Part shown: positions 9,835 through 25,982 of the stretch, piece by piece
Position numbering within the stretch: position 1 is the stretch's first letter
How the letters are laid out: every line of letters begins with the position of its first letter
Source of the DNA: a virus
Lineage: Duplodnaviria > Caudoviricetes
Virus record (IMG/VR): IMGVR_UViG_3300047275_000809
Location: 1 to 28,694 of that record
Length of the DNA stretch: 28,694 nt
Direction: 5' to 3' (one strand)
Made by a program: the position numbers and the translations under genes
Notes under the pieces: generated by a model
Seen by the model: only the letters and a program-made list of their open reading frames with translations
Told to the model about the DNA's origin: nothing
Database searches by the model: none

Positions 9835-10182
9835 ATGCCTGCTCCAAGTTCGCTCCGCGCCATCGACCGCCTCAAAAAAGCGGCCAACCTGGAGCCCGCC
9901 AAACGCGTCGTGCAGCTTTCGGACGGCAGCGAGTTCGAGATGTGGGTCACCCCGCTGACCATGGCCGAGCGCGAACGCGCCCAGAAGCAAGCCAAATCTG
10001 ACGACGCCAACGCCTTCGCCCTCCAACTCCTGATCGCCAAAGCCCTCGACGACACTGGAGCAAAACTGTTCAGCGCCGGCGAAATCGACGTCCTCAAAAA
10101 CGAAGTCAAGGACAAGGACCTCCAGTCCCTGATGCTCGCGATCCTGACCGATGACGCCGAGCCCATCGACCCAAAGCCCTGA
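9835..10182 (+). CDS. Tail assembly chaperone (lambda gpG-like), short form
   Basis: 115 aa between the tube and tape measure genes; ends GAC CCA AAG CCC TGA. Confidence 0.85.
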   Translation: MPAPSSLRAIDRLKKAANLEPAKRVVQLSDGSEFEMWVTPLTMAERERAQKQAKSDDANAFALQLLIAKALDDTGAKLFSAGEIDVLKNEVKDKDLQSLMLAILTDDAEPIDPKP

Positions 10183-10367
10183 GTGCCGAACTCCGTAAGG
10201 ACAACTGGCTGATGCTCCAGTTTGGCGTCGCCAAGGAACTCGGCCTCAGCCTGAGCGAAGTCCGCACCACGATGACCGCCGAGGAATTACTCGGCTGGAG
10301 CGCCTACTTCCAGATCCTGAACGAGGATCAACAGAAGGAGATCGAAAAGGCCAAACGCCGCCGCTAA
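10170..10367 (+). CDS. -1 frameshift extension of the tail chaperone (gpGT-like, 177-aa fusion)
   Basis: In-phase slippery heptamer C CCA AAG at 10170-10176. The -1 frame reads PKALSAELRKDNWLMLQFGVAKELGLSLSEVRTTMTAEELLGWSAYF...KRRR to TAA 10365-10367, with the typical gpT 'LG.sl.E....MT.eE...W.AY' pattern. Confidence 0.9.
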   Translation, partial: PKALSAELRKDNWLMLQFGVAKELGLSLSEVRTTMTAEELLGWSAYFQILNEDQQKEIEKAKRRR

Positions 10368-10382
10368 CCCGGCGGCTTTTTT
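10357..10382 (+). terminator. Intrinsic terminator after the frameshifted chaperone
   Basis: GCCGCCG-CTAACC-CGGCGGC-TTTTTT, with the stop codon in the loop. Confidence 0.8.
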
Positions 10383-22993: not shown

Positions 22994-23493
22994 TCCCCAT
23001 GTACTTCCTCAACGGTCAACCTCTCTTTACCGGCCAGCCATTTACTGGCCCCGACGGCACTAAGTACCCATCTAACTGGCTGGAGCTATCCAGTAAAGCC
23101 GAGCGCGATAGCGTCGGCATTGTGTTTGAGCCGGATGCGCCAACATTCGATAGTGCGTTTTATGTTGGCTATTCTGATTCAGGAGAGCTTATCCCAAAAA
23201 ATCACGCCATTTTGGTGGAGCAGTATTCCGTTGATTGCCGTGGTCGCGCCTACGGATTGCTGCGTTCTACTGATTGGATGATTATCCGCGAAATTGACAA
23301 TGGCACCGCAGTTGATCCTGTCATCAAGCAATGGCGTGAAAACGTCCGACTAGCTGCTGCCGCCAAAATCACCGCTATTGAGGCCACTGCTGACACCGCC
23401 AGCCTTGCCGCGTACATTACCGGCGGCGACTACAGCACTTGGCCCAGTGATCCCAATGCTCCTGCTGGCGTTCCTCCTACTGATGGGGTTTAG
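22990..23493 (+). CDS. Tail fibre assembly chaperone-like protein
   Basis: YPSNWLELSS.AER..VGI; LLRSTDWMIIRE...WRENVR...WPSDP. Confidence 0.65.
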   Translation: MIPMYFLNGQPLFTGQPFTGPDGTKYPSNWLELSSKAERDSVGIVFEPDAPTFDSAFYVGYSDSGELIPKNHAILVEQYSVDCRGRAYGLLRSTDWMIIREIDNGTAVDPVIKQWRENVRLAAAAKITAIEATADTASLAAYITGGDYSTWPSDPNAPAGVPPTDGV

Positions 23494-23523
23494 TCTTCTA
23501 GCGATTAACCCACGCAGAGACTG

Positions 23524-23658
23524 ATGGCCGTCAAATCCAAAACCGCATTGGGACGCGTCGAGCACGCCCCAGGCAAACCCAAGAAAACGCGCCAAGGGCA
23601 GGGACAGCACAGCCTGCCTAACCACGGCCGCAAAAAACTACGCGGCCAAGGTCGATAA
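23524..23658 (+). CDS. Small basic protein (44 aa)
   Basis: MAVKSKTALGRVEHAPGKPKKTRQGQGQHSLPNHGRKKLRGQGR; -10 TAGTCT at 23491-23496. Below the ORF-track length cutoff. Confidence 0.75.
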   Translation: MAVKSKTALGRVEHAPGKPKKTRQGQGQHSLPNHGRKKLRGQGR

Positions 23659-23687
23659 GATGTAAAAAACGGGCTTCGCGCCTCATC

Positions 23688-23936
23688 ATGGACCGCCACG
23701 ACGAGGCCGCAAGCCCCCCAGACTCCCCATCATCCTTCACCCAAATTGTCCCGGCACTACTGACCGCCGCCGTAGTCGGCCTCGCCGGGCTCTTCATGCA
23801 AGTCGCCAAACTGGAGCAACTGGTTAACACCGTCGTCTCCGACATCCAAGAACTCAAAAACGACTCCAAGGAACGCCTCAACGACCTCGAACATCGCGTC
23901 CGCCAAATCGAAGTCAAGGTCACCCACGCAAAATGA
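23688..23936 (+). CDS. Single-TM coiled-coil membrane protein (holin/spanin-like candidate)
   Basis: IVPALLTAAVVGLAGLFMQV followed by a heptad coiled coil; near the lysis genes. Confidence 0.6.
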   Translation: MDRHDEAASPPDSPSSFTQIVPALLTAAVVGLAGLFMQVAKLEQLVNTVVSDIQELKNDSKERLNDLEHRVRQIEVKVTHAK

Positions 23937-24118
23937 CCGTCATCAACTCCAGCCTGTATCCCGAAGGCTACGCCCTGGAGCAGCTGGAGAACGAGCGCGG
24001 CGAAATTTATTACCGCGCCTGCAAAGGCAGTATCTGCCGCTACGCCGAAGACGAATACATCGCCCGCATGTACCTCGAAGGCATGGGCTGGAACCCTACG
24101 CAACCTCCTCTGAACTGA
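23933..24118 (+). CDS. Hypothetical protein (61 aa)
   Basis: ATGA-coupled to the upstream gene; codon usage matches the phage. Confidence 0.65.
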   Translation: MTVINSSLYPEGYALEQLENERGEIYYRACKGSICRYAEDEYIARMYLEGMGWNPTQPPLN

Positions 24119-24416
24119 TCCATTCCTCAATCTCCACCTCCAATCTGTGATTCCAAAAATCCTGCTGGCGAAACCACTCCCTCCACTGCTGACTCGCCTT
24201 CCTCACATTGCACGACAAGCACGCTGGAACAAGATTCTTGGGATGTGTATGCCCCCCTTTACTCTTAGCCAATACATGATCCAACGTCGCCGACCGACCT
24301 AAATCACAATCGCAGTACGCACACCGATTCCGCCACCGCCACAGGATTTCTTGCCTAAATCTTAACTTAGCCTCCTTTTTACTTAAGTATTCGCCATCGT
24401 CAATCTGATGGTCCAT
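24096..24416 (-). CDS. HNH endonuclease
   Basis: CAYC...TLDHVLAKSKGG...NLVPACLSCNVRK; start at 24416 or 24422; -10 GCTACCTT (hexamer 24437-24442). Confidence 0.9.
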   Translation of the reverse strand: MDHQIDDGEYLSKKEAKLRFRQEILWRWRNRCAYCDCDLGRSATLDHVLAKSKGGHTHPKNLVPACLSCNVRKASQQWREWFRQQDFWNHRLEVEIEEWISSEEVA

Positions 24417-24436
24417 ACGCATAGGTGGCTACATAA

Positions 24437-24493
24437 AAGGTAGCGAGTACAACCATCCCACGTACTGGCGTTCTTCTCTACTACAGCTACACT
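24437..24493. promoter_or_regulatory. Divergent promoter pair for the HNH (-) and holin/endolysin (+) genes
   Basis: GCTACCTT (- strand) and GCTACACT (+ strand) flank the inverted repeat AGTAC-N11-GTACT. Confidence 0.5.
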
Positions 24494-24515
24494 GACATCA
24501 GAATCCACATTTGAC

Positions 24516-24656
24516 ATGGATCCCACTACCGCCGCGGTCATTGCGATTGCAGTCGCCGCTATCTCCGAAGCCCTGAGCCTCTACCCGGGCATCCGCGCCA
24601 ACGGCATCATCCAAGCCCTCCTGCTTGTCGGCAAAACCCTCTTCCCAAAGCGCTGA
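24516..24656 (+). CDS. Small holin-like membrane protein (46 aa), short form
   Basis: MDPTTAAVIAIAVAAISEALSLYPGIRANGIIQALLLVGKTLFPKR; two hydrophobic segments; -10 GCTACACT at 24486-24493; upstream of the endolysin. Not in the ORF track. Confidence 0.75.
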   Translation: MDPTTAAVIAIAVAAISEALSLYPGIRANGIIQALLLVGKTLFPKR

Positions 24657-24883
24657 GCGCCGACACCACTTGGATGGTGCGGTTCGGCGCCACCCTGCAA
24701 CCCCGCCTCGACCGCGCCATCCAGGACTGGCACGACTCCCAACCTCCCGACCTTCCACCGCCTGTTGTCCTCGACCACCCGCTGGATCCAGAACTACAGA
24801 CCGGAGATAGCCGCTTGCTGGGCGGCGCCATGAGTATCCACGCCGCCTGGTCCGATGACCACAAACAAGCTCCGCCTAGCTGA
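24644..24883 (+). CDS. Predicted -1 frameshift extension of the holin-like gene (122-aa fusion)
   Basis: In-phase C CCA AAG at 24644-24650, a 6-nt spacer and a stem-loop at 24657-24690. The -1 frame is open through ORF 24674..24883. Confidence 0.7.
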   Translation, partial: PKALSADTTWMVRFGATLQPRLDRAIQDWHDSQPPDLPPPVVLDHPLDPELQTGDSRLLGGAMSIHAAWSDDHKQAPPS

Positions 24884-25982
24884 CCTGTTCCGGTATTACA
24901 GGGCACTCCCGCACCAGCTGGCCGCAGTGACTGAACTGGAGGCAGCCATCAATAAGGCCAACCCCCACATCCTGGGCCGCGACCAAGGCTGGTTCAAAAC
25001 CTGGAGCGTCGCCGGCAAACAGAGCGATTTCCCCAACACATGGGAGGGCGTCGTCGAGGCTGCCCGTGTCGCCGGAGCTAAATTCCCCGAACTCGTCGCC
25101 GCCCAATGGGCACTGGAATCAAGCTACGGCAAACTCGTCTCCGGCCGCAACAACTTTTTCGGCCTCAAAGGCACCGGCAGCGCCACCACAACCCAAGAAT
25201 TCATCAACAACCAGTGGATCACAATTACTGACAGCTTCCTTGATTTTCCGGACTTACTCTCTTCTGTCATCTACCTCGTCGATCACTGGTACAAGGACTA
25301 CAAGCAATACAAGGGCTGCAATAACGCCACCACCCGTGAAGACGCTGCCAAGTGGCTGGTCAAGGAAAAATACGCCACTGACCCTAACTACGCGGGCAAA
25401 CTAATCGCCCTGATGGACCAACACGCTGGTACAAACCCAGCCGTAAAGCCCAAGGAACGTATTCTCAAAGTCCCCTACGAATACCAGCTCGGCCCTGACG
25501 ATGGGGCCACCGGTTACCGCCAGTGCTTTAGCTCCAGCTGTGCAATGGTGGCGCGGTATTACGGCAAGATCTCAGGCGACTACGAGTACAACAAACTCCG
25601 TGCCCGCTTCGGTGATACCACCGACCCCAAAGCCCAACTAGCAGCCTTGAAAGCACTGGGACTGACCGCCTCGTTCGAGATGGACGGCACAGTGGAAGAC
25701 CTCGAAAACGAGATCAGCGCCGGCCACCCCGTCCCTGTCGGCTGGCTCCACAAGGGCCCTGCCTCTGCCCCCTCAGGCACCGGCCACTGGAGCGTCGTCG
25801 TGGGCTTCACCCCAACGCACATCATCCATAACGATCCGAACGGCGAGGCCAACCTCGTCAGCGGCGGCTACGTCAGCCACAAGGGTGGCGCCAACATCCC
25901 CTACTCCAGAAAAAACTGGCTACCCCGCTGGCTTGTTGACGGCAGCGACACCGGCTGGTGGATGAAAATCCGCACGAAGTAG
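24855..25982 (+). CDS. Endolysin: GH73 glucosaminidase plus C39-like peptidase
   Basis: AAQWALESSYG...NNFFGLKG...YATDPNYAGKL (GH73); QCFSSSCAM...GHWSVVVG...HNDP (Cys-His-Asp, C39-like). Confidence 0.85.
   Translation: MTTNKLRLADLFRYYRALPHQLAAVTELEAAINKANPHILGRDQGWFKTWSVAGKQSDFPNTWEGVVEAARVAGAKFPELVAAQWALESSYGKLVSGRNNFFGLKGTGSATTTQEFINNQWITITDSFLDFPDLLSSVIYLVDHWYKDYKQYKGCNNATTREDAAKWLVKEKYATDPNYAGKLIALMDQHAGTNPAVKPKERILKVPYEYQLGPDDGATGYRQCFSSSCAMVARYYGKISGDYEYNKLRARFGDTTDPKAQLAALKALGLTASFEMDGTVEDLENEISAGHPVPVGWLHKGPASAPSGTGHWSVVVGFTPTHIIHNDPNGEANLVSGGYVSHKGGANIPYSRKNWLPRWLVDGSDTGWWMKIRTK

Follow-up and report, generated by a model that had tools for sequence, protein, structure and literature searches.

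The antiholin RIII of phage T4 is a cytoplasmic protein. Phage lambda obtains holin and antiholin from a dual start, and LysA of phage P2 is encoded by a separate gene (accessible part of PMC3091744). Tailed-phage frameshifts, in the accessible text of the papers searched, concern tail chaperones and virion proteins. For the lysis gene of MS2, an earlier proposal held that frameshifting governs expression (PMC10885494 and the reference list of PMC5009743, as far as accessible), and a later title in that reference list concerns lysis activation by termination at the coat gene. We found no frameshifted holin-like gene in the literature searched, which included the accessible parts of PMC5009743, PMC10885494, PMC4591317, PMC4299906, PMC3091744 and PMC12846349, the original S-CBS descriptions and supplements (PRFect false-positive tables) being outside its scope; the word 'holin' is absent from the accessible review text of PMC5009743. 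Here we describe a very probable programmed −1 frameshift in a gene for a 46-amino-acid (aa) membrane protein (hereafter ORF1, for open reading frame 1) that lies before the endolysin gene of a tailed virus (Duplodnaviria; Caudoviricetes). The window is the whole virus record IMGVR_UViG_3300047275_000809, a linear stretch of 28,694 bases that is about 64% complete.

ORF1 ends TTC CCA AAG CGC TGA, and the −1 frame is open from 24515 to 24883. A tandem slip on the in-phase heptamer C CCA AAG would join 45 residues of ORF1 to 77 residues of the −1 frame (hereafter the tail), giving a long product of 122 aa. This layout of 46-aa ORF, heptamer, open frame and two products had been proposed in a first-pass annotation, all coordinates of which were confirmed (Table 1). 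The hydrophobic segment of ORF1 spans residues 4–22 (Kyte–Doolittle (KD) hydropathy 1.87), and the tail in the window is 18 aa shorter than in most relatives. Two contigs (X3 and X5, from two runs of one study that is not marked as the source of the window) cross the junction without difference or gap, which rules out an assembly slip at this point.

Related junctions were gathered in three sets. The tail-selected set started from 221 candidate stretches, 193 of which encode a relative; the best 80 were kept. Of these, 79 hold ORF1 and one is cut off by the end of its contig, and together with the window they provide 61 distinct junctions. Because this set had been chosen by its tail, two further sets were added. 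The ORF1-selected set consists of the best 80 of 162 loci, with 66 distinct junctions. The synonymous-blind set was obtained with two DNA patterns that are degenerate at all synonymous sites of F-P-K; it holds at least 239 loci, 231 of them with the motif, and once 10 near contig ends had been dropped there were 169 distinct junctions among the matches listed, 135 with a tail and 34 without (cut-off, 25 bits).

Conservation of the heptamer follows the presence of the tail. A perfect X XXY YYZ heptamer is found in 60 of the 61 tail-selected junctions (C CCA AAG, 30; A AAA AAG, 28; C CCA AAA, 2), the last being imperfect (G AAA AAG); the stop always comes one codon later, overlaid in the −1 frame by CTG, CTA, TTG or TTA. 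In-phase heptamers of such type are rare, at 9 of 5274 codon positions in eight long genes of the window. In the synonymous-blind set, TTC CCA AAR is present in 134 of 135 junctions with a tail versus 6 of 34 without (Fisher's p = 5e-25, kinship ignored). Among these six tail-less carriers, one has a short tail just under the 25-bit cut-off and three have a different 26-aa −1 frame. The ORF1-selected junctions divide into 31 with tail and heptamer, 1 with the tail only, 5 with the heptamer only and 29 with neither. Synonymous loss of the heptamer is thus concentrated in tail-less relatives, and the comparison strongly supports the frameshift proposed at first pass; of the three features that were expected to be conserved in homologues, the heptamer and the open −1 frame are, and the 34-nt hairpin is not.

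A stronger control than this kinship-uncorrected comparison is internal to ORF1. At the site itself, the 135 tail-bearing junctions use TTC in 135, CCA in 134 and AAG in 128, whereas the two other prolines of ORF1 are CCA in 17/134 and 10/127. Three heptamer classes that encode different amino acids occupy the same position, namely C CCA AAG, A AAA AAG and, in S-EIV1, G GGA AAG; the accessible text of PMC5009743 lists all three as prone to shifting in E. coli, C CCA AAG highly so. Judged by these comparisons, the signal for frameshifting is genuine and is maintained by selection. Fusion by transcriptional instead of ribosomal slippage, to which the run of six A in the A AAA AAG class would lend itself, has a negligible probability.

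From the junction onwards, the −1 frame is maintained at the protein level, and no start codon within it is conserved. Its third positions are the most variable even upstream of ATG 24674 (entropy 0.54/0.48/1.21). The first 12 tail codons of the 135 loci contain no ATG, GTG or TTG in 83 cases (ATG in 4, GTG in 14 and TTG in 34), and a −1 frame stop lies at most 10 codons upstream in 47. These data bear on the alternative that there is no frameshift and that the tail is a separate protein, made by termination–reinitiation at the CTG over the stop or at ATG 24674. Such a mechanism appears to act in S-CBS2-type loci, where separate genes have GTG over the stop, and in the sole tail-bearing locus without a heptamer (L186, the same as L302), which also has GTG there; over the stops of the 135 loci, GTG occurs in 7 and TTG in 26. 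However, the codon at this place is CTA, TTA or GTA in 21 loci and never ATG, the window's ATG 24674 is present in only 3 of 58 clade members and is paired with a probability near 1, and reinitiation leaves the fixed synonymous sites of three heptamer classes unexplained, so that we regard it as a very improbable account of the locus. The first-pass annotation had dismissed ATG 24674 as buried in structure and devoid of a Shine–Dalgarno sequence. The burial holds; the missing Shine–Dalgarno sequence carries little weight, because ORF1 and the tail chaperone also start without one.

The RNA downstream of the site is predicted to be structured, in a manner other than first described. The hairpin at 24657–24690, originally put forward as a 3′ stimulator, folds in outline as described (−17.9 kcal/mol; z −3.0 against dinucleotide shuffles, 3/200 of which were as good, and z −3.4 against synonymous shuffles), but is displaced by the hairpin at 24669–24725 (−34.5) when 70 nucleotides (nt) or more are folded. 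We rejected it as a stimulator for the family: the 58 aligned junctions share no consensus fold, and its core pairs, which can form in 42–57 of the 58, display no two-sided (compensatory) change. For 45-nt segments, z is −0.73 with a tail versus −0.44 without. Over the first 120 nt after the site, the mean z against synonymous shuffles is −2.35 in 121 C-class loci and −2.40 in 29 A-class loci, compared with −0.3 for endolysin segments (40/54 loci). In the main clade (90 junctions), this excess folding corresponds to a predicted long-range helix between nt 27–34 and nt 114–121 (mean pair probability about 0.35; paired in 61–89 of 90), in which two-sided changes may reflect two lineages. The window is without 54 nt between the helix arms, and the same arms pair within the hairpin at 24669–24725. 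The long-range helix is too distant from the site to be a classical stimulator and may mask internal starts. A rod from nt 7 is present in 15 A-class loci, and no such structure in 20 short-tail loci. A 5′ Shine–Dalgarno stimulator was also rejected: the clade has a consensus AAGGTG at a distance of 5 nt upstream of the heptamer, but this sequence follows the codons, and the window lacks it. Rfam gave no match in 23400–25200.

Profile comparison places the tail in a domain family of cyanophages. The local tail profile scores 7–34 bits on 12 homologues versus at most 0.1 on neighbours, and 13–23 bits on four myovirus phrog_3316 proteins versus at most 0.1 on seven neighbours. The family phrog_3316 is matched by 9 of 36 tails at E up to 0.1 (best, 0.002); the window's own tail has no PHROG match. 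At the C-terminal motif the protein sequence is retained, whereas the synonymous sites are free to vary (78 distinct). At E <0.1 the tail family was found only in Synechococcus phages, among which sipho-, myo- and podoviruses carry the domain, and a search with a 34-aa motif returned 13 records, all from Synechococcus phages and most at E >1. For the tail of a 95-aa relative, AlphaFold predicts one long helix and two short strands (predicted local distance difference test (pLDDT) 68, predicted template modelling score (pTM) 0.34). Weak Foldseek matches of the same tail are enriched for Synechococcus phages and, with just one at E <0.001, provide a lead only; the ESM Atlas returned hypothetical clusters only.

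As judged from these profiles and from gene order, cyanophages deliver the domain in three ways. In the first, as in the window, it is joined to ORF1 by slippage. In the second, it is a separate, coupled gene next to an ORF1-like gene (gp49 and gp48 in S-CBS2, gp105 and gp104 in S-CRES1), with no heptamer and with its own GTG or ATG; in S-CBS2 and S-CRES1, respectively, the ORF1 profile gives 23 and 39 bits on gp49 and gp105, and the tail profile 34 and 18 bits on gp48 and gp104. Among loci related to gp48, an ORF1-like gene is found upstream in 2 of 10, both with GTG at the stop. In the third, the domain belongs to a single gene. Myoviruses carry it in phrog_3316 proteins with a hydrophobic N-terminus of their own; in S-PM2, S-CRM01, S-CAM7, S-B68 and S-N03 the gene follows one for an endolysin, a lysozyme-like or an RlpA-like protein, and in S-SRM01 the phrog_3316-type gene is two genes after a lysozyme-like one. 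Podoviruses carry it in phrog_22672 proteins, encoded after terminase or thymidylate synthase. By family membership and by comparison with these anchored single genes, the predicted 122-aa product therefore resembles the anchored myovirus proteins in layout.

The properties of the tail also bear on the suggestion, made at first pass for the pair, that the long form is spanin-like or another periplasmic protein that disrupts the envelope. A proline-rich linker behind a long predicted helix would suit such a protein, the myovirus homologues resemble type II anchored proteins, S-PM2 p161 has a lipobox-like cysteine, and ORF1 matches an Rz-like PHROG at E 0.035 over 22 residues only. However, neither ORF1 nor the tail has a cysteine, and thus no lipobox; basic residues after the membrane segment suggest that the C-terminus is inside; and the separately encoded tails of S-CBP2, S-CBS2 and S-CRES1 have no hydrophobic segment (KD maximum 0.44–0.77). 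A spanin-like role accordingly has a very low probability.

Relatives of ORF1 number 2813 among 8000 candidates (236 representatives at 50% identity), and all of the best 120 of the 2813 are unnamed or hypothetical. About 134 of 149 representatives, taken from the 150 listed, match phrog_22542, and the PHROG families matched are of unassigned function. A single membrane segment and, at the C-terminus, a basic amphipathic helix suggest an N-out, C-in topology for the protein. The first long downstream ORFs (104 distinct) have wall-hydrolase domains in 36 of 40 tested, and in 21 of the 34 loci without a tail, ORF1 and the endolysin start adjoin each other (−8 to +21 nt). As expected of a holin, ORF1 is a small protein with a membrane segment beside an endolysin that, by inspection, has no export signal. 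The label 'holin-like', given at first pass, thus stands as a statement of context that rests on position, hydrophobicity and the downstream hydrolases, without a holin family match behind it.

Given the frameshift, a role in lysis is probable from this context. The alternative is that the frameshift is real but does not time lysis, the pair being a late membrane protein that serves some other purpose, such as acting on a host membrane complex or in superinfection exclusion, and the holin being the 82-aa protein encoded from 23688. The missing holin match and the detection of the tail family in Synechococcus phages only (E <0.1), which would fit a host-specific target, are in keeping with this, as is the position of the pair or its homologues away from annotated endolysins in S-CBS2, S-CRES1, the podoviruses and S-CREM1. 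On the other side stand the wall hydrolases that ORF1 precedes, its abutment on the endolysin start in tail-less loci and the lysis-type genes before the five myovirus homologues named above, and we consider such another purpose unlikely. Immediate neighbours of ORF1, on one side or the other, encode proteins like the 82-aa one in S-CBS1, S-CBS3, KBS-S-2A and several loci.

Table 1 Features of the ORF1 region and of the tail assembly chaperone in the window.
Feature	Position	Strand	Remark
ORF1, 46-aa membrane protein (short product)	24516..24656	+	relatives in phrog_22542, function unassigned
In-phase −1 slippery heptamer C CCA AAG	24644..24650	+	shift-prone class in E. coli (accessible text of PMC5009743)
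Single sense codon and zero-frame stop	24651..24656	+	−1 codon over stop is CTG
−1 frame tail, 77 aa, soluble	24650..24883	+	completes predicted 122-aa product
Hairpin of the first-pass annotation	24657..24690	+	starts 6 nt after heptamer; stable in window, family conservation absent
Longer competing hairpin	24669..24725	+	arms 24677–24684 / 24710–24717; buries ATG 24674
Conserved C-terminal tail motif, LGG-x-M-x-I-x-x-x-W type	24794..24850	+	common to phrog_3316 and phrog_22672 proteins
Endolysin, glucosaminidase and C39 peptidase domains	24855..25982	+	start 29 nt before tail frame end
82-aa protein, one membrane segment and coiled-coil-like tail	23688..23936	+	other candidate membrane lysis protein of region
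Tail assembly chaperone: C CCA AAG, one codon, stop	9835–10368
7-nt listed feature inside tail assembly chaperone gene region	10170..10176	+

Building on the signal, the open frame, the selection on both, the family membership of the tail and the gene context, all of which are observed, we lean towards a frameshifted gene with a holin-type short form and a regulatory long form. Most ribosomes would stop at the zero-frame stop and yield the 46-aa short form, likely of holin type. A fraction would slip back one base on C CCA AAG, with tRNA-Pro and tRNA-Lys probably re-pairing on CCC AAA, and yield the 122-aa form with the conserved cyanophage domain, presumably as the minor product. The membrane anchor would be common to both forms, the tail most likely lying on the cytoplasmic side, and slippage would tie the domain to the same anchor in a fixed ratio. 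The fixed-ratio holin/antiholin pair suggested at first pass is possible. The ratio of short to long form may then tune lysis timing, the long form acting as a holin regulator rather than a spanin. More broadly, and only tentatively, cyanosiphoviruses may make holin and regulator from one gene, the domain being a cyanophage-wide lysis module delivered by three interchangeable routes, with lineages switching between frameshift and coupled GTG start.

Shifted ribosomes would terminate inside the start region of the endolysin gene and may feed endolysin synthesis, since, of the 97 loci that could be assessed, 67 have the tail stop 23–35 nt downstream of the endolysin start. This overlap, the direct coupling of ORF1 to the endolysin in tail-less loci and the weak or absent Shine–Dalgarno sequences at the relevant starts would also suit a frameshift that mainly meters endolysin synthesis by reinitiation at the endolysin start, with the tail peptide secondary. 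We hold this to be improbable, as the C-terminal motif of the tail is kept as protein with its synonymous sites free and recurs in phages with other gene orders; coupling may add to a protein role without replacing it.

Several observations weigh against a frameshifted holin gene with a regulatory long form. Support for the predicted frameshift product is comparative. No conserved 3′ structure is present at stimulator distance in the window's clade. In lineage trees (upstream 126 nt, 163 rows) the tail changes seven times and the heptamer eight times, and these comprise three to four independent pairs on supported branches, none of them wrong-way (p 0.25–0.5, not significant); the lineage-corrected test is underpowered because independent lineage changes are too few. 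There is no Pfam match at E 0.01 among the 149 ORF1 representatives and no named holin among the ORF1 homologues listed, and 34 of 169 ORF1 relatives do without any tail. The S-CBS2 and S-CRES1 pairs lie beside structural genes, with no annotated endolysin in the adjoining stretch examined, and in podoviruses and S-CREM1 the neighbours of the homologues are genes for terminase, thymidylate synthase or ligase. Finally, in the myovirus homologues the hydrophobic segment is preceded by a basic N-terminus. This suggests that their domain is periplasmic, at odds with the cytoplasmic tail favoured for the window.

Four cultured Synechococcus phages carry the locus. In KBS-S-2A, S-CBS1 and S-CBS3, ORF1 ends A AAA AAG, one codon, stop; in S-EIV1 it ends G GGA AAG. 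Annotation of the four gives two separate hypothetical genes or misses one part. At the S-EIV1 locus (L486 1699–1839), ORF1 is unannotated and no endolysin lies directly downstream; a lysozyme gene is located about 1.4 kb away on the other strand. For the virus of the window, which has siphovirus tail genes, a picocyanobacterial host is inferred because Synechococcus is the host of the closest cultured phages that have the locus. All six sequencing runs that hold at least half of the window's sampled words are freshwater or wastewater metagenomes, and no RNA run is listed among the runs holding window sequence.

The −1 frame behind ORF1 is not always the tail. L248, L257 and L265 keep the heptamer, and their −1 frame is a different, arginine-rich tail of 26 aa, preceded by what looks like a GC-rich hairpin; this tail may be a second extension that was recruited. 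L162 and L165 (1639–1730), the closest ORF1 relatives, have the heptamer and an unrelated 30-aa −1 frame with an ATG just after the stop. In L184 and L215, distant ORF1 homologues are followed after 1620–1630 by a conserved −1 ORF of 58–60 aa with its own ATG. In the ORF1 relatives P0124, P0126, P0127, P0129 and P0130, the zero frame continues for 35–50 codons beyond the lysine pair, and a stop directly after the site may therefore not be required. Natural in-frame fusions (P0131, P0136 and P0195) were not counted as support, as they may be sequencing or assembly errors. Just upstream of ORF1, an HNH endonuclease gene lies on the minus strand (24096–24422), opposite to the late genes. The endolysins of the window (24855–25040) and of relatives have a constant N-terminal domain of 60 aa and swapped catalytic domains, either lysozyme or glucosaminidase and either M15 or C39.

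If confirmed, recoding would join dual starts and separate antiholin genes as a route to lysis-protein pairs. It would also tie the unannotated families phrog_22542, phrog_3316 and phrog_22672 into one module, correct the annotation of the four cultured phages and supply testable candidates for the passage of Synechococcus phages across the inner membrane. Were one gene to make holin and regulator within a cyanophage-wide module, this would amount to a new way of timing lysis and would put names to the membrane lysis components still missing for Synechococcus phages. The frameshift signal lies in a new class of gene, with a function that we infer. New as well, on the profile evidence, is the membership of the tail in a cyanophage domain family that also exists as a coupled separate gene and as a self-anchored single gene.

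Among known frameshift systems, the lambda tail chaperone gpG/gpGT likewise has a heptamer near the end of the short gene, a C-terminally extended product and often no clear stimulator (accessible text of PMC5009743); here, by contrast, the gene encodes a membrane protein in the lysis region. The chaperone of the window itself has the same heptamer, codon and stop arrangement as ORF1. Across relatives, 63 of 67 distinct chaperone junctions keep C CCA AAR and 4 are imperfect; the last heptamer codon is AAA in 50 of the 67, versus AAG in 128 of 135 lysis genes, a preference that, by E. coli rules, hints at a higher shift rate in the lysis gene. An origin of its frameshift cassette by copying from the chaperone was considered and rejected. 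The two look alike by eye only, the tail has no detectable homology to the T part (profile probability 0.33%), 171 of 19104 stretches of the window match the chaperone downstream DNA equally well, and on two contigs (L116/L065 and L141/L077) the heptamer class differs between both genes; convergence is enough to account for the likeness.

The phrog_3316 proteins (S-PM2 p161, S-CRM01 g111, S-CAM7 gp243 and S-B68) and phrog_22672 proteins (S-CBP4 gp49 and S-CBP2 gp53), both of unassigned function, have a helix motif and a C-terminal LGG-x-M-x-[IL]-x-x-PW in common with the predicted 122-aa product and are of similar length (97–139 aa). They differ from it in being encoded in a single frame and in an N-terminus unrelated to ORF1 (profile at most 1 bit), and their similarity to the tail is weak and limited to the C-terminal half.

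The A_AAA_AAG site of E. coli dnaX and insertion sequence (IS)-type systems is of the same class as 28 of the 61 tail-selected junctions and those of S-CBS1, S-CBS3 and KBS-S-2A. In dnaX, as described in the accessible text of PMC5009743, a 5′ Shine–Dalgarno stimulator is present and the shift shortens the product, whereas here the shift would extend it and the window has no such element. MS2 differs in being an RNA phage with single-gene lysis, in which the shift is said, in the accessible parts of the sources cited above, to cause early termination, with no extended isoform. The locus resembles holin/antiholin pairs in that two products sharing a membrane part, or a separate partner gene, lie beside an endolysin without an export signal. 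It differs from them in that ORF1 is unrelated to any Pfam holin and in that the predicted forms diverge at the C-terminus, by recoding.
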